DNA from: a virus
Taxonomy: Duplodnaviria; Heunggongvirae; Uroviricota; Caudoviricetes
Virus record (IMG/VR): IMGVR_UViG_2529292919_000020
Strand: one strand, 5' to 3'
DNA length: 15,934 bases
The position numbers and the translations under genes were made by a program. Numbering within the stretch: position 1 is the stretch's first letter; each line of letters begins with the position of its first letter. The notes under the pieces were generated by a model. The model made no database searches. It had not been told where the DNA came from and saw nothing but the letters and a program-made list of their open reading frames with translations. This document shows positions 1 to 15,934 of the stretch, in pieces.

Positions 1-1230
1 ATGAGCAGAGCACTTAACAAACTGAGCGATACACAGCTGAGGAAAATCAACGGCACACCCGCCCAAAAAACAGCCTTTCTTAATGACGGTGGAAACCTGA
101 GCGTCAGGCATTCAACCAGCGGCCTTTTAACCTGGTATTTCACTTACAGGGCCGGAACGGGAAGGGGGGCACCACCGGAACGCATTAAGCTGGGAAATTA
201 TCCTGATCTGAGCCTGAAATCAGCCAGGGAAAAAGCCGCCCAGTGTCGCGCATGGCTGGCTGAGGGGAAAAATCCACGTCATGAGATGAATTACACCGTA
301 CAGGAAGCGTTAAAGCCGGTAACGGTTGGCGATGCGCTCACCTACTGGCTTGAGTCGTACGCAAAGGAAAACCGTGTAGATTATGACCCACTGAAAAAGC
401 GGCTAAATAATCACGTAATACAGCACATTGGCTCTATGCCGCTGGATAAATGCGAGCTACGGCACTGGCTGGCCTGTTTTGATCGGGTGGCAAAGCAAGC
501 CCCTGTTTCCGCCGGGTTCCTGCTACAGACATGCAAACAGGCGCTTAAGTTCTGCCGGAAGCGGCGCTATGCAATCAGCAACGTTCTTGATGATATGAGT
601 GTGGCTGACGTTGGGAAAAAACCGGATATAAGCGAACGTGTCTTAAGCAATAAAGAACTGGGCGAATTATTGCAGACACTGGACAAAAAAATATTTTCCC
701 CTTACTACGTCGCACTAATCCGCCTCCTGATTGTTTTCGGATGCCGGACAGTAGAACTGAGATTATCGGAGATCGGCGAGTGGGATTTTACCGAAATGCT
801 CTGGACTGTTCCGAAGGAGCACAGCAAAACGAAGGTAGCCATATTCCGGCCCATACCGGAAGCGATACTGCCGTTCGTCACGCAGCTGGTGGAGCAGAAC
901 AGGCACACGGGCTTATTGCTGGGGGAAGTGAAACAGGAAACCAGCGTATCGCAGTACGGCAGATTGGTGCACAGGAGGCTTAAACACCCTCACTGGTCAT
1001 TGCATGACATCCGGCGCACCTTTACAACGATGCTGAACGATTTAGGCGTGGATCCTCACGTCGTGGAGCAGCTTACAGGACACCAGATGCCAGGGATGCA
1101 ACGAGTCTATAATCACTCCCGTTATCTGGATGCGAAACGCAATGCGCTGGATATGTGGACGGAGCGGTTAGGGATACTGGCGGGAGCACATGAAAACGTA
1201 ACCACGCTATCAGTAGCCAGAAGAAAATAA
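1..1230 (+). CDS. int: Tyrosine recombinase / integrase, P4-type (N-terminal arm-binding-like domain plus C-terminal catalytic domain)
   Basis: 409-aa ORF starting at ATG at position 1. The N-terminus (LSDTQLRKI...NDGGNLSVRHS...TWYFTYR...LGNYPDLSLKSAREKA) resembles the arm-DNA-binding domain of P4-like integrases. The C-terminus carries the tyrosine-recombinase signature (HDIRRTF...LTGHQ...RVYNHSRY). The ORF begins exactly at the window edge, so an upstream extension and attL cannot be assessed. Confidence 0.9.
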   Translation: MSRALNKLSDTQLRKINGTPAQKTAFLNDGGNLSVRHSTSGLLTWYFTYRAGTGRGAPPERIKLGNYPDLSLKSAREKAAQCRAWLAEGKNPRHEMNYTVQEALKPVTVGDALTYWLESYAKENRVDYDPLKKRLNNHVIQHIGSMPLDKCELRHWLACFDRVAKQAPVSAGFLLQTCKQALKFCRKRRYAISNVLDDMSVADVGKKPDISERVLSNKELGELLQTLDKKIFSPYYVALIRLLIVFGCRTVELRLSEIGEWDFTEMLWTVPKEHSKTKVAIFRPIPEAILPFVTQLVEQNRHTGLLLGEVKQETSVSQYGRLVHRRLKHPHWSLHDIRRTFTTMLNDLGVDPHVVEQLTGHQMPGMQRVYNHSRYLDAKRNALDMWTERLGILAGAHENVTTLSVARRK

Positions 1231-1286
1231 TTTTTTTCGTGTTTTTTCAGTATGCGCATACTGGATAAGCACACAGATACAACGGC

Positions 1287-1322
1287 GAACAATGTGAAAC
1301 AACGTGGAACAACCACGAACAA
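1287..1322. promoter_or_regulatory. Four GAACAA units phased at exactly 10 bp (starts 1287, 1297, 1307, 1317): candidate binding array for an AlpA/Xis-type or integrase arm-binding protein
   Basis: Direct reading: cGAACAAtgtGAAACAAcgtgGAACAAccacGAACAAg. The reverse complement shares 18 identical nt with 7335..7352 and with 14335..14352. Position is between the int stop and the alpA start. Confidence 0.5.
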
Positions 1323-1605: not shown

Positions 1606-1794
1606 GTGTTAAGCACAGATCGCTTTATACGTGAAAAAGAATGTCAGCAACTTACAGGCCTGAGCCGCTCATGTCGGTATCGCCTGGAGAAGACTGGACA
1701 ATTCCCATCACGGCGTAAACTCGGCGGTCGTTCCGTTGGCTGGTCTTTATCCGAAGTTCTGGCATGGAAGGACAGCCGCGAGGCAGTTCACTAA
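1606..1794 (+). CDS. alpA: AlpA-family (Xis/Vis-like winged-helix) transcriptional regulator
   Basis: 62-aa ORF with GTG start preceded by a strong Shine-Dalgarno (AAGGGGGAA). The motif ...CQQLTGLSRSCRYRLEKTGQFPSRRKLGGRSVGWSLSEVLAW... matches the AlpA pattern (L-TGLSRST-YRL---G-FP-P-KLG-R-V-W---EV--W). Confidence 0.85.
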   Translation: MLSTDRFIREKECQQLTGLSRSCRYRLEKTGQFPSRRKLGGRSVGWSLSEVLAWKDSREAVH

Positions 1795-3709: not shown

Positions 3710-5520
3710 AACTGGCACCGAACGTAAAACAGCAGTTACGCGGCATAAAACACAAAGAAACAGAAGTCATTATTTTTGCGGGTAGTGATGCCTGGTCACA
3801 CGCAAAACAATGGCAGGAACATGACGCGCGTATGGCCGGAGATAATGAGCCTCCTGTGTGGCTTGGGGAGCAGCAGTTATCCGAACTGGATAAGCTGCAA
3901 ATTGTGCCGGAAGGCAGAAAATCCGTGCGCATATTCAGGGCCGGATATCTTGCGCCAGTAATGATAAAGGCGATTGGTCAGAAGCTGGCGGCGGCAGGCG
4001 TACAGGATGCAAATTTTTATCCTGAGGGTATGCACGGCCAGGAGGTGCAGAACTGGCGCGAATATCTGGCCCGTGAGCGCCAGAATCTTTCTGATGGTCT
4101 GGTGATTCAGCTTCCTGTTAAGAAAAAAACAGAAGACAGCGCCGCACCACTGGCGCTTAACCAGATGGGAGCAAGCCAGCGCGGCGAAGTTCTCCTGGCA
4201 CATTATGGCGGTGAACTGGCGATTCATGCCGACTCTGACACTGTTCACCATTACAACGGCGTTGTATGGGAGCCGATTCAGGATAAAGAGTTACAGCGTG
4301 CTATGGCGCAGATTTTCATTGATGCGGAGATCAGCTATTCGCAGAACGCCATTAAATCGGCGGTCGATACCATGAAGTTAAGTTTGCCTGTAATGGGGAA
4401 TACAGCCCGTAACCTGATTGGATTCAGTAACGGGGTATTTGATACCAGAACAGGTAATTTTCGGGAGCATAACAAAAACGACTGGTTGTTAATTGCCAGT
4501 GAATTACCTTTCAGCCCACCAGCAGAGGGGGAAACGCTGGCAACACATGCGCCGAATTTCTGGAAGTGGTTACGCCGCTCGGTGGCAGAGAATGACCGCA
4601 AGACGGATCGCGTGCTGGCTGCATTATTCATGGTGCTGGCGAACCGGTACGACTGGCAGTTATTCATTGAGGTAACAGGTCCAGGGGGAAGTGGTAAAAG
4701 CGTGATGGCGGAGATTTGCACCATGCTGGCGGGTAAGGCCAACACAGTATCGGCAAGCATGAAGGCGCTGGAAGATGCAAGGGAACGCGCGTTAGTGGTT
4801 GGCTTTTCGCTGATTATCATGCCGGATATGACCCGCTACGCTGGTGATGGCGCAGGAATTAAGGCCATTACAGGCGGTGACAAGGTGGCAATCGACCCGA
4901 AGCATAAAGCCCCCTACTCAACACGCATTCAGGCGGTCGTGCTGGCGGTGAACAATAACGCCATGTCATTCAGTGACCGCAGCGGGGGGATCTCACGTCG
5001 TCGGGTGATATTCAATTTTTCGGAGGTTGTACCGGAGAACGAGCGCGACCCCATGCTGGCAGAAAAAATAGAAGGAGAGCTGGCGGTTGTGATTCGCCAT
5101 CTGCTTACTCGTTTTTCTGACCAGGACGAAGCTAAACGCCTGCTGTATGAGCAGCAGAAATCAGAAGAAGCTCTGGTGATAAAACGCGAGGGCGATTCGC
5201 TGGTGGACTTCTGTGGCTATCTCATGTCGTCGGTAATGTGTGATGGTCTGTTAGTGGGTAATGCCGAAATTATTCCGTTCAGTCCGCGCAGGTATCTTTA
5301 TCACGCCTATCTGGCATATATGAGGGCACACGGATTCGGTAAACCTGTAACACTGACGCGCTTCGGTAAAGATATGCCGGGGGCAATGGCGGAATATGGC
5401 AGGGAGTATATAAAACGGAAAACGAAGCACGGTTTGCGTTCAAATGTGACACTGACAGAGGATTCAGAAGACTGGATGCCATCATGTGCATCGGTCACAA
5501 ATGACGACAGCAAAAATTAA
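3706..5520 (+). CDS. Replication initiator (pri-rep) with P4-alpha-like C-terminal SF3 helicase / origin-binding region; N-terminal ~200 aa of unassigned family
   Basis: 604-aa ORF with strong SD (CAGGGGG). Walker A GPGGSGKS, followed by a region resembling the phage/plasmid primase P4-family C-terminal (D5-like) helicase domain. Sits immediately upstream of an iteron array. Confidence 0.85.
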   Translation: MKLAPNVKQQLRGIKHKETEVIIFAGSDAWSHAKQWQEHDARMAGDNEPPVWLGEQQLSELDKLQIVPEGRKSVRIFRAGYLAPVMIKAIGQKLAAAGVQDANFYPEGMHGQEVQNWREYLARERQNLSDGLVIQLPVKKKTEDSAAPLALNQMGASQRGEVLLAHYGGELAIHADSDTVHHYNGVVWEPIQDKELQRAMAQIFIDAEISYSQNAIKSAVDTMKLSLPVMGNTARNLIGFSNGVFDTRTGNFREHNKNDWLLIASELPFSPPAEGETLATHAPNFWKWLRRSVAENDRKTDRVLAALFMVLANRYDWQLFIEVTGPGGSGKSVMAEICTMLAGKANTVSASMKALEDARERALVVGFSLIIMPDMTRYAGDGAGIKAITGGDKVAIDPKHKAPYSTRIQAVVLAVNNNAMSFSDRSGGISRRRVIFNFSEVVPENERDPMLAEKIEGELAVVIRHLLTRFSDQDEAKRLLYEQQKSEEALVIKREGDSLVDFCGYLMSSVMCDGLLVGNAEIIPFSPRRYLYHAYLAYMRAHGFGKPVTLTRFGKDMPGAMAEYGREYIKRKTKHGLRSNVTLTEDSEDWMPSCASVTNDDSKN

Positions 5521-5530
5521 ACTTATGGAA

Positions 5531-5760
5531 TAACTGTTCACCACTGTTCACCCTGTGATAAATATCTTTTATATCAGTACATTATAGGGTGAACAGTTAT
5601 TTGTGAACTGTTCACCAAACTATTCACTGTTCACCTTTTTGATTATTTATTGAGCTTTAAGGGTGAACAGTGGTGAACAGTTGGTGAATAGTTTTTGTGA
5701 AACTGTTCACCCCTTAACATTATGAATAAAAAGGGAAAATCTCAAAAGGTGAACAGGTGA
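5531..5760. repeat. Replication origin iterons: about ten copies of CTGTTCACC / GGTGAACAG in both orientations, with an adjacent AT-rich tract
   Basis: Forward copies start at 5534, 5545, 5608, 5627, 5703. Inverted copies start at 5588, 5662, 5672, 5748, plus a degenerate GGTGAATAG at 5683. Neighbouring copies are 10-11 bp apart. AT-rich AAAAATTTTATTTTATT at about 5774..5790. The core TGTTCACC is the octamer I recall as the alpha-binding iteron of P4 ori1/crr. Confidence 0.8.
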
Positions 5761-7282: not shown

Positions 7283-7290
7283 AGCGATAA

Positions 7291-7319
7291 AGGCCCGGAT
7301 TTTTTCCGGGCCTTTTTTC
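7291..7319 (+). terminator. Rho-independent terminator closing the replication/accessory operon
   Basis: Stem GGCCCGGA (7292..7299) pairing with TCCGGGCC (7305..7312), followed by TTTTTT (7313..7318). Confidence 0.7.
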
Positions 7320-7336
7320 AGGTTTTGTAAATTATT

Positions 7337-7362
7337 TGTTCGTGGTTGTTCCAGGTTGTTCG
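7337..7362. promoter_or_regulatory. Three TTGTTC units phased at exactly 10 bp (starts 7337, 7347, 7357) upstream of the capsid operon: candidate activator-binding site for late/packaging gene expression
   Basis: Direct reading: tTTGTTCgtggTTGTTCcaggTTGTTCgg. An 18-nt exact match to the reverse complement of 1304..1321. Lies just after the terminator and about 195 bp upstream of the major capsid gene start. Confidence 0.5.
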
Positions 7363-7555
7363 GTGATTCTGGTTGATGTTTACATACTGATTTTTATGTA
7401 TATGTTGGCGTGTGGCACTCAGACGTGAGCCGCCACAATGCCGCCTGACCCCCTGCGCGATGCCGGGTTGATCTGCGAGATGCCGAGAGTGTCGGGCGGC
7501 GCTCCCCCCGTGTTGGTTTCACGTCCTGAATCTTAACCAATGCGAGAAAACCTTC

Positions 7556-13557: not shown

Positions 13558-13842
13558 GTGAGCGAAACCGAACTACTAAAAATAATCCGCCGCATTACCG
13601 GAATCAGCCAGGAAGCAGGCAAACAGGAGGCCACGCAGCCGGACAGCGTGATAGCCGAAAATTACGCGCGTGTGGTGGCTGAGGTGATGCGCCGTGATGG
13701 TATTGAGCTTAACGGCGTGGATATGCGCTACATACGGATCAGAGTTCTGGAGTTGTTGTCATATCGTCGCCGCGTGGAGATGTACCAGGAGAAAGAAAAA
13801 ATTACTTACCACTGGAAGAAGCCGGAGCGGTTGCGGCGGTAA
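13558..13842 (+). CDS. Hypothetical protein (94 aa) downstream of terL; last ORF of the element
   Basis: ORF-track ORF with GTG start and weak RBS. Charged, helical-looking sequence with no recognisable motif. Its stop codon lies inside the first copy of a 23-nt direct repeat. Confidence 0.4.
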   Translation: MSETELLKIIRRITGISQEAGKQEATQPDSVIAENYARVVAEVMRRDGIELNGVDMRYIRIRVLELLSYRRRVEMYQEKEKITYHWKKPERLRR

Positions 13843-14003
13843 CTGGTTGATATTCCCGACGGTCCAAAAATGGGTTGGCTACACCCCTCACAACTACGAC
13901 ATTTTCGCAGTTTAATTAATGGTCAGCTTAATCGCTAACCCGCTGATATTTTCGGAAACCTCAATTTGAGGAAGTCGGCGCGGTAACTGTTTGATATTCC
14001 CGA
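13837..14003. repeat. 23-nt direct repeat CGGTAACTG(G/T)TTGATATTCCCGA (13837..13859 and 13981..14003, 1 mismatch), part of a diverged ~140-bp tandem duplication
   Basis: Direct reading. A second shared block CTAACCCG(C/T)TGAT occurs at about 13936 and 14069. Confidence 0.5.
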
Positions 14004-14334
14004 TAACGCAAAATTGCGCTGGATGAATGAACATTATGTTACTTATGATTACGCAGATGATTAAGGCCTAACCCGTTGATTCTTCCACAATCCCCCATTG
14101 GGGGAGGCTGGGCGGCCTGCTGTGGGCTTTTCCACCATTGGTGGAAAGGTGCAGATCTGAATCATCATTACGGTGATCAAGGGTATGTAAAACCCACCAG
14201 CCTGATTGACATTTAACCGGAAAAAAAGCCAGGTAGCCCCGTTATGGGGATCCCCATATCGACATTAACGCCCCTCATGAATTGGCGTGCTTTCCCCTGG
14301 AAAGATGACCCGCCTGTATATTTCTTGTGTCTAT

Positions 14335-14391
14335 TTGTTCCACGTTGTTTCATACAGTGCACCGAACGGTGTAGTTAATGGTGTAGTTAAT
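14335..14391. repeat. Third copy of the phased TTGTTC motif (14335..14351, 2 units 10 bp apart) followed by a perfect tandem GGTGTAGTTAAT x2 (14368..14391)
   Basis: 14335..14352 (TTGTTCCACGTTGTTTCA) is an 18-nt exact match to the reverse complement of 1295..1312. The 12-bp tandem duplication was read directly. Confidence 0.45.
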
Positions 14392-14473
14392 TTGCGATTT
14401 TTGGTACTTTTTGTAGTGCAAATTATTTAATTAAATCAATGCCTTATCTTAATTTAGTGATAAAAGGACATAT

Positions 14474-15934
14474 TTATTCATCTTTCGGCGCAGAATGCTG
14501 GCGACCAAAAATCACCTCCATCCGCGCACCGCCCAGCATGCTCTCTCCGGCGACGATTTTACCCTCATATTGCTCGGTGATTTCGCGGGCTACGGCCAGC
14601 CCCACACCTTGCCCAGGGCGTAAAGTATCAACCCGTTGACCACGGTCGAAAATGACCTCTCGCTTGCTTAATGGAATACCGGGGCCATCATCCTCGACCA
14701 CAATATAGAGATGCTCGTCGGTTTGCCTTGCAGAAATTTCGACAAACTCGAGGCAATATTTACAGGCGTTATCCAGCACGTTGCCCATCACTTCGACAAA
14801 ATCATTCTGCTCACCAACAAAGCTGATTTCTGGCGAGATATCGAGATAGATATTGACCCCTTTGCGTTGATACACTTTGTTCAGCGCCGAGGTGAGATTG
14901 TCCAACAGTGGGGCGACCGGATGCAGCTCGCGGCTAAGCAATGTCCCGCCGCGCATACTGGCACGATGCAGGTAGTAGCCAATTTGCTGTGAAATGCGGC
15001 TGATTTGCTCCAGCATTACCGGCTCAGCATCACTGACGCTCATCTTCTCACTACGCAGAGAACGCAGCGTACTTTGCAGCACCGCCAGTGGTGTTTTCAG
15101 ACTATGGGTCAGGTCGGTGAGCGTCGTACGATATTTGTCGTAACGTTCGCGTTCACTTTTTAACAGTCGGTTCAGGTTTCGTACCAGACTGGTCAGTTCT
15201 CGCGTTGTGGCTGGATTGAGCAATTCACGGTTATGTTCTTCCAGTTCGCGGACTTCTTTTGCCAGGGCTTCGATGGGGCGTAAACTCCACCAGGCGGCGA
15301 CCCACAGCAGCGGGATCACTAACAGCAGATTGGCTGAGAGCACATAGATAAACCAGCTCCAGACCATATAGGAACTTTTTAGCTCCACCGGAATGGTATC
15401 CACCACCACAATGGTTAACTTTGGCATCCGCGATGTTGCCGGGTAGACGTTTACCGCCACCGAGTGGGTCATCTCCGCGTCGTCATCATCTTCCCGCACT
15501 TCCTGCAACTGTTGCTGTATCGAATGATCTCCACTCAGCAAGAGGCTGGTATCGTTAACATCCGCTTCAATTTCATGAAAACCATTCGATTTCAGCCAGT
15601 CAGGCTGGATCATCTTCATCAGCCAGGGCACGTCACGTTGCGCCCATAAAAGCTGCCCGTTCTCATCATAAATTAGTGTCATCGTGGGGCTTTGCTTGTC
15701 GATATTTTCGGGTAACTCGACATGCAACTTATTGTTTTCCCACTTCGCAAGGGTATAGAACAGATTGCTCTCGCCACGTAACAGCCGAAACGTGGTTTTA
15801 TCGAAACTGACGCTATAACCGATCAGCGCAACCATTCCGTAGGCAAGCGAAAGCACCAATACTACTGCTGCCGTTGCTAACAGAAAACGTACCCGCAGCG
15901 AGAGCGGGAAAAAAAGATGCAGTAATTTTTTCAT
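14474..15934 (-). CDS. phoQ: Sensor histidine kinase PhoQ (PhoP/PhoQ two-component system)
   Basis: 486-aa ORF. From memory the sequence is near-identical to E. coli PhoQ ([76 protein letters not shown]... ending ...[10 protein letters not shown]). Periplasmic acidic patch EDDDDAE, HAMP, phosphoacceptor His in [12 protein letters not shown], and ATPase G-boxes. The start codon is at the window edge. Confidence 0.95.

Follow-up and report, generated by a model that had tools for sequence, protein, structure and literature searches.

Organization of the predicted attR arm and core of a capsid-forming phage-inducible chromosomal island at the roxA-phoQ site

Which proteins read the short repeats that stand just inside the right end of an integrated phage satellite, next to the bacterial gene phoQ, and what part do these repeats take in recombination with the chromosome? 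The question is raised by the IMG/VR virus record IMGVR_UViG_2529292919_000020, a stretch of 15,934 nucleotides (here termed the window) that begins at the ATG of a gene for a 409-residue integrase and ends within phoQ. An initial annotation, made from the sequence alone, had pointed to a phased TTGTTC motif beside a perfect 12-bp tandem duplication, about 85-140 bp from the phoQ stop codon, and had proposed that the motif belongs to a recombination arm flanking an attachment core. Both repeats are present exactly as described, the distance holds (the stop codon occupies 14474-14476), and comparison of the junctions bears out the placement in an arm. The window is a capsid-forming phage-inducible chromosomal island (PICI) of ~14.5 kb located between roxA and phoQ, where EcCICFT073, the prototype PICI of Gram-negative bacteria, is also inserted. 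We favor, with a probability of roughly 0.8, the reading of positions 14325-14480 as the attR recombination arm and core of this island, part of an integrase and attachment module of the EcCICFT073 type within the P4 family.

The analysis drew on a comparison of 12 islands at three insertion sites (phoQ, tqsA and cspD/clpS). The left attachment site, attL, lies outside the window and was read from two collinear islands, both inserted between roxA and phoQ: one in E. coli strain E200139 (L002; 99.3% identity over the right end), the other in E. coli WP8-S18-ESBL-07 (L139; NZ_AP022261; 99.36% identity over all 15,934 bases).

Junctions, core and empty site

The right junction in the window reads GTGATAAAAGGACATATTTATTCATC and the left junction of the collinear islands GTATGGACATATTTTATCAATTAGTG, corresponding to attR = AAAAGGACATATTTATTCATC and attL = GTATGGACATATTTTATCAATT; the two share an identity block, GGACATATTT, at 14466-14475. 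The unoccupied site, attB, reads ...GTATGG(G/A)CATATTTATTCATC, and in genomes with an empty site homology to the window begins at 14466. Alignment of attL, attR and attB points to a 7-bp overlap, GGACATA (14466-14472, plus strand), as the inferred region of crossover. On its island side stands the core-type integrase site C, TGATAAAA (14458-14465, plus strand), and on its chromosomal side the core-type half-site B', TTTATTCA (14473-14480, plus strand), which holds the phoQ stop codon. The full core in the window, TGATAAAA-GGACATA-TTTATTCA (14458-14480), thus covers the end of phoQ, as the initial annotation had anticipated in suggesting a core that overlaps its 3' end; integration leaves the stop codon intact, with the overlap adjoining it.

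When the two island-side halves are joined, the reconstructed attP core becomes TGATAAAA-GGACATA-TTTTATCA, in which TGATAAAA and TTTTATCA are perfect inverted repeats of each other, 8 bp long and separated by 7 bp. Judged from sequence, this is a classic tyrosine-recombinase core, with inverted sites and an identical overlap, and the exact positions of cleavage in it are predicted ones. The predicted junction of the excised form is TGATAAAAGGACATATTTTATCA, or AGTGATAAAAGGACATATTTTATCAATTAGTG with its flanks.

The empty site in E. coli K-12 comprises 75 bp between roxA and phoQ (...GTGAAGTATGGGCATATTTATTCATC...) and its overlap carries one mismatch, GGGCATA. The predicted attB with GGACATA is present at 74/74 identity in the 12 records listed, and the band of at least 99% identity extends to as many as ~3000 records, a figure in which partial matches at occupied sites are counted as well. 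Of 5426 complete genomes, 4826 carry the site without interruption. The outcomes that the initial annotation had named as refuting were not encountered: the left junction of the collinear islands carries a matching core together with the same repeat module, and the empty site carries the same overlap and lacks the 12-mers.

Other sources of junction sequence were also inspected. A scan of a genome collection with TTGTTCCNNNTTGTTTCA returned almost only chance matches in unrelated phyla, the query being too degenerate for 596 Gb. The record CP088587.1 (32.6 kb), deposited as a circular E. coli plasmid, consists of a chromosomal segment from pntB to clcB with a capsid-forming island at the tqsA site; it was considered and rejected as an excised circle, being a chromosomal fragment that carries the island, and its deposition as a circular plasmid is probably an assembly artefact.

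The repeat module of the arms and its relation to the integrase

The right arm contains a phased array of four 10-bp repeats (14325-14360, plus strand) that we regard as a putative binding array for AlpA, a directionality factor of the Xis/TorI type. Its members are TTGTGT (14325-14330), TTGTTC (14335-14340), TTGTTT (14345-14350) and a degenerate CAGTGC (14355-14360); TTGTTC and TTGTTT are spaced by exactly 10 bp, and the outer two are weaker copies in phase with them. A gap of 7 bp separates the array from two copies of GGTGTAGTTAAT that follow one another directly (14368-14379 and 14380-14391, plus strand; Tandem Repeats Finder: period 12, 2.0 copies, 100% match), the second of which is GGTGTAGTCAAT in some phoQ-site islands. 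Shuffling the window 500 times with dinucleotides preserved produced a perfect 12+12 tandem once; the window has seven same-strand TTGTT[CT] pairs at exactly 10 bp, whereas 1000 shuffles gave 0.024 on average and never more than one. Both the tandem and the phasing are beyond chance. TTGTTC taken as a plain hexamer shows no enrichment (14 copies in the window, 11.1 expected); significance attaches only to its phasing and clustering. Isolated near-matches to the 12-mer at 286-297 and 13874-13885 were considered as additional arm sites and set aside as possible chance matches.

The same module recurs in the left arm. Beginning 77 bp beyond the core, the collinear islands read TTGTTCcagcTTGTTTcacgTTGTAGccctTTGTGCaacgatcGGTGTAGTTAATGGTGTAGTTAAT, followed 22 bp later by the ATG of int, so both arms present four repeats in 10-bp phase, a 7-bp gap and two 12-mers, all in the same orientation. 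The 12-mer pair stands 66 bp from the core in attR and, as an identical pair, ~120 bp from it in the left arm. The true partner of the right-end module thus lies upstream of int, just outside the window. The initial annotation had taken as its reference for the att arms an "int-proximal" array within the window (1277-1322), which is situated downstream of int on the opposite strand and is more likely regulatory.

The 12-mer pairs flank the core from within the element and are absent from attB, a disposition expected of arm-type sites, and the encoded integrase has the two kinds of domain expected of a heterobivalent enzyme. This P4-family tyrosine integrase (409 residues; 1-1230, plus strand) comprises an N-terminal arm-binding domain (residues 8-95), a central domain and a catalytic domain, with matches to PF13356 (Arm-DNA-bind_3, residues 8-95, E-value 4e-18), PF22022 and PF00589. 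Its N-terminal domain matches the CP4-like integrase structure 3JTZ, and overall it is identical to the EcCICFT073 integrase at 387 of 409 residues.

Islands at different sites revealed which part of the enzyme accompanies the 12-mers. Integrases of the tqsA class are 89% identical to those of the phoQ-site class, and the ~20 class-specific substitutions are packed in residues 5-84, the arm-binding domain, with few elsewhere; AlpA shows no substitution specific to integrase class. In tqsA-site islands the core is ..AACAGCA.. and the TTGTTC arrays are unchanged, and the 12-mers are GGTGTAGTCACT twice in attL and GGTGTAGTCA(C/A)T plus GGTGTAGTCATT in attR. The tail of the 12-mer, GTTAAT versus GTCACT, tracks integrase residues 5-84, especially 36-42, and the tqsA class has KYLTSGKL where phoQ- and clpS-site integrases have RHSTSGLL. 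The cspD/clpS-site integrase, 73-81% identical, keeps the RHSTSGLL segment, GGNLSVRHSTSGLLTWYF, and GGTGTAGTTAAT.

A natural chimera separates these associations further. In E. coli PKF11 (L132; NZ_CP156706; int at 14442-15671) an island in tqsA bears phoQ-type 12-mers in both arms, and its integrase is of the phoQ type at 16 of 16 diagnostic N-terminal residues and of the tqsA type at residues 129, 133, 174, 177, 200 and 248. This domain swap, taken with the comparison of classes, indicates that the 12-mer follows the arm-binding domain and that the target follows the central domain. We predict with high confidence, from sequence, covariation and likeness to P4, that the 12-mers at 14368-14391 serve as paired arm-type sites of the integrase.

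Between these sites and the core lies a match, AATCAATGCCTTA (14434-14446, plus strand), to the consensus WATCAANNNNTTR of integration host factor (IHF). Its WATCAA and TTR elements are kept in 11/11 attR arms, and the NNNN and following spacer vary. Such a site fits an architectural bend between arm and core, a single consensus match being weak in itself.

The phased arrays, AlpA and related systems

To follow the arrays among islands we applied a relaxed motif, TTGT[TAG][CTG] in at least three copies at exactly 10 bp. All 11 close relatives, the window included, carry such arrays in attL (for the window, that of the collinear islands), in attR and, on the opposite strand, in the interval between int and alpA. 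In a divergent island at the clpS site the relaxed motif retrieves the attR array only, and attL has two phased copies of TTGTTCG. No array of at least three phased copies occurs in 219 kb of chromosome flanking 12 islands; the arrays are confined to fixed positions within the islands and, as does AlpA, stay constant across integrase classes.

Two arrays of the window stand apart from the attachment sites. The first, of five phased TTGTxx units (1277-1322, minus strand), lies between the int stop codon and alpA, inverted relative to those of the att arms; it holds the same place in 11/11 close relatives, its TTGT cores being kept while the spacers drift, and in EcCICFT073 the corresponding array has at least five copies. 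It is probably a regulatory element, concerned with autoactivation of alpA, and not an att arm; it may alternatively serve an antisense promoter directed into int, or have another role. Between the int stop codon and this array (1248-1263) is a perfect 16-bp palindrome, CAGTATGCGCATACTG, which is not conserved in EcCICFT073. The second, three phased TTGTTC units (7336-7361, plus strand), precedes the capsid gene (7556); a terminator-like hairpin (7283-7316) lies before it, and it ends 18 bp upstream of a promoter-like TTTACA-16-TATGTT (7379-7406). This capsid-upstream array is present in 4/4 capsid-forming islands and absent from those that do not form capsids.

The candidate reader of the arrays is encoded by alpA (1606-1794, plus strand), whose product is a 62-residue winged-helix protein of the AlpA/Xis type, with matches to PF05930 (Phage_AlpA, E-value 2.7e-18) and to an AlpA-family structure, PDB 8C3T (E-value 5e-7), and a weak similarity to TorI (26% identity over 42 residues). 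The phasing of the arrays, their adjacency to arm-type sites in both arms, and the presence of a winged-helix protein of the directionality-factor family are the attributes of a directionality-factor array. In EcCICFT073, AlpA is both needed and sufficient for the island to excise and replicate, and it also activates its own promoter (PMC6092414). CP4So requires AlpA for excision (PMC5148205), and in PICMI the protein behaves as an excisionase without transcriptional effects (PMC10803314). By analogy with these systems and with the relatives described below, the arrays are probably bound by AlpA. The fuller proposal is more tentative, and we hold it at somewhat less than even odds: that AlpA reads phased TTGTTC at four places, namely both att arms, upstream of alpA and upstream of the capsid-packaging operon, acting both as excision directionality factor and as direct activator of early and late transcription.

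Likeness to satellite phage P4 is close in design. The P4 integrase belongs to the same family and possesses an arm-binding N-domain, and P4 also encodes an AlpA-like protein annotated as "excisionase and transcriptional regulator". Its record annotates 12-mers, each an "attP arm sequence repeat", as adjacent direct pairs 53 and 112 bp from the core (66 and ~120 here), the proximal pair immediately upstream of int. Adjoining that int-proximal pair we found four xTCCG repeats with an exact 10-bp period (~3966-4010 of the P4 record); in CP4-57, three xTCCG repeats of the same exact period (~650-720) precede the int-proximal 12-bp arm pair, TAGGCCCATTGA TAGGCCCAACGA, which occupies the position of the P4 proximal pair. 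The repeats themselves are unrelated, (T/A)(T/A)GGGGGCAYNN with xTCCG in P4 as against GGTGTAGTTAAT with TTGTTC here, and in P4 a further arm copy, inverted, covers the start of int. The P4 core is in a tRNA-Leu gene, whereas that of the window is at the phoQ stop codon.

Phage lambda, with the P and P' arms of its attP, offers the same logic as that proposed for attR here. Its integrase is heterobivalent and bridges arm-type and core-type sites; the core sites are inverted, with an overlap of 7 bp separating them, the Xis sites (X1, X1.5 and X2) stand in phase beside arm sites, and IHF, at H1, H2 and H', bends the DNA between arm and core. It differs in that the integrase is of another subfamily, the sequences are unrelated, int is not adjacent to the arm sites in the same way, and the Xis sites are in one arm only.

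The attL of KplE1 (CPS-53) presents the order core, directionality-factor sites, integrase arm-type sites and int start, the att arm overlapping the upstream region of int as it does in these islands. The TorI sites, which lie upstream of intS and separate the core from the IntS arm sites, are three 8-mers 2 nucleotides apart with GTTCG and GATCG cores, and recombination requires IHF in vitro (PMC2951348). In K-12 the three sites are CAGTTCGT ca TGGTTCGC tt CAGATCGT, with a 10-bp period, and they come close to the TTGTTCG of the present arrays. Placed beside P4 and CP4-57, these positions suggest a shared GT(T/C)CG-type code for proteins of the AlpA, Vis and TorI kind. The proteins are distant, IntS being 21% identical to the window integrase and TorI 26% identical to AlpA, and TorI represses intS whereas AlpA was reported to be without effect on int expression in EcCICFT073. 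EcCICFT073 is far closer: it shares the roxA-phoQ site, an AlpA identical at 60 of 62 residues, and the same arrays, 12-mers and core in both arms, although it is a PICI of the non-capsid-forming kind, lacking portal, protease and terL genes, and has no capsid-upstream array. Its excision, circularization, int-attP-dependent integration and dependence on AlpA have been shown experimentally (PMC6092414).

The following mechanism would accommodate these features. The N-terminal domain of the integrase would bind the paired GGTGTAGTTAAT 12-mers in both arms, and its C-terminal domains the inverted core sites TGATAAAA and TTTTATCA, exchanging strands across GGACATA; IHF at 14434-14446 would bend the DNA such that one integrase molecule could bridge arm and core. 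AlpA would be made only once a helper phage switches alpA on, and would then cooperatively cover the phased repeats that adjoin the arm sites of attL and attR, remodeling the complex. As a factor of the Xis, TorI or Vis kind it would allow excision between attL and attR to proceed while re-integration is disfavored, and from 1277-1322 and 7336-7361 it would activate alpA and the packaging operon.

Alternatives, other features of the island and implications

As an alternative role for the tandem, the initial annotation had offered that it might be part of the crossover core or a target-site-type duplication, as a perfect direct duplication near an island end could suggest. The copies, however, adjoin one another and do not flank the island, lie 66 bp inside it, and recur as the same pair at its other end and in the tqsA and clpS islands; since the 12-mer lies within the island, occurs as a pair at each end and is missing from the empty roxA-phoQ site, it is neither core nor target-site duplication, and we count this alternative as already refuted, with a probability close to nil. 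A reversed assignment would make the TTGTTC repeats the arm-type sites of the integrase and have the 12-mers bound by AlpA or another factor. Both repeat types occur in both arms, so position alone does not discriminate, and the arm-type sites of lambda are likewise direct repeats of ~10 bp. Yet the 12-mer tail changes with the integrase N-domain while the array and AlpA remain constant, and the chimeric integrase of L132 separates the type of N-domain and 12-mer from the site of integration. In P4, too, the annotated arm repeats are tandem 12-mers at these positions, and the TTGTTC arrays match the GTTCG sites of TorI and stand alone at two promoter-proximal places with no obvious role for an integrase arm. 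We judge the reversed assignment very improbable.

It is unlikely, in our estimate, that the arrays are bound by a factor other than AlpA (an inducer from the helper phage, a host protein or a replication initiator) or are merely intrinsically curved DNA. TTGTT is not an A-tract, which makes strong intrinsic curvature unlikely. The iteron of the presumptive replication origin, ACTGTTCACC, shares TGTTC with the arrays, but the true iterons (5519-5717) change with the allele of the replication gene and the arrays do not, and we rejected the arrays as replication iterons on that ground. One array does lie upstream of alpA, which is turned on by a factor of the helper phage (PMC6092414); against this, EcCICFT073, whose arms are the same, is excised when AlpA alone is expressed with no phage (PMC6092414), and the arrays resemble the mapped sites of the AlpA-family relative TorI.

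Several observations nonetheless weigh against the attR arm, AlpA-bound interpretation that we prefer. All assignments of protein to DNA draw on comparative sequence and analogy to the literature, and the left arm is that of islands 99.3-99.4% identical to the window, attL itself being outside it. The excised attP junction was not found in IMG/VR, two metagenome scans, or phage and plasmid collections. Covariation of 12-mer and integrase is imperfect in attR, where a GTCAAT tail occurs in both integrase classes. A phased array in both arms departs from P4, where one was observed only beside the int-proximal pair, and from KplE1, for which five TorI sites are described on attL (PMC2951348). Fillol-Salom et al. 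observed no effect of AlpA on the int promoter of EcCICFT073 (PMC6092414), which is unexpected if AlpA binds directly ahead of int. Scanning the left arm for promoters found no sigma-70-like int promoter, and autoregulation of the integrase therefore stays an analogy with KplE1. Finally, the sole promoter-like match ahead of alpA (1515-1543) is ~190 bp away from the 1277-1322 array.

The remainder of the window agrees with its classification. The collinear islands L002 and L139 are annotated with integrase, an AlpA-type helix-turn-helix protein, primase, single-stranded DNA-binding protein, ProQ/FinO, major capsid protein, HK97 protease, portal, connector, HNH protein, and small and large terminase (terS and terL), a gene set corresponding to the description of the capsid-forming PICI family (bioRxiv 10.1101/2022.09.08.507074). 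That family combines int, alpA, a replication module and its own capsid and packaging genes in ~15 kb, with no tail or lysis genes, and the window, judged by the annotation of these islands, conforms to it. In L139, the closest full-length relative of the window, the protease, portal and small-terminase genes (26419-29572) are annotated as frameshifted pseudogenes. Directly after the primase gene, the iterons at 5519-5717 comprise nine copies of ACTGTTCACC, five direct and four inverted, and likely constitute the replication origin; in related islands the iteron varies with the replication-gene allele among ACTGTTCACC, CTGTCTACC, AAAAGTGAG and TAACCCGCA.

A stretch of ~500 bp (13836-14330) precedes the attR arm, the last small open reading frames ending at 13842 and 13915. 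It contains a 43-bp direct repeat, GCGGTAACTGnTTGATATTCCCGA... (13836-13878 and 13980-14022), three minus-strand matches to the IHF consensus (13840, 13984 and 14069), the palindromes CCCCCATTGGGGG and TTCCACCATTGGTGGAA, and a GGGCGGC stretch; a block at ~14180-14330 is nearly invariant across islands with different packaging modules, and it may be a cos or terminase recognition region. An Rfam search gave no match to an RNA family anywhere in the window, leaving a structured RNA in the right-end spacer unsupported.

The layout described here is the ordinary design of the P4 attP and of KplE1, and embodies no new principle. What appears to be undescribed is the internal map of PICI att arms, those of EcCICFT073 included, together with a candidate AlpA operator and its presence in both arms and at two promoters. 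The roxA-phoQ attachment site common to EcCICFT073 and capsid-forming PICIs now has a base-level map of core, overlap, IHF-like site, arm sites and candidate AlpA operator. The natural chimeric integrase indicates that arm recognition and target choice are separable modules, and narrows the choice between phoQ and tqsA to at most six residues (those of the tqsA type in L132), which would be useful for engineering these satellites as delivery vehicles. If AlpA does read the arrays at all four places, the view of it as an activator, from EcCICFT073, would be reconciled with the view of it as an excisionase, from PICMI and CP4So; an array in both arms would likewise represent a variant intasome design, compared with the single arm described for KplE1 and observed in P4. 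The main value of the map is a testable handle on what AlpA binds, and on whether it serves these islands as excisionase, as activator, or as both.

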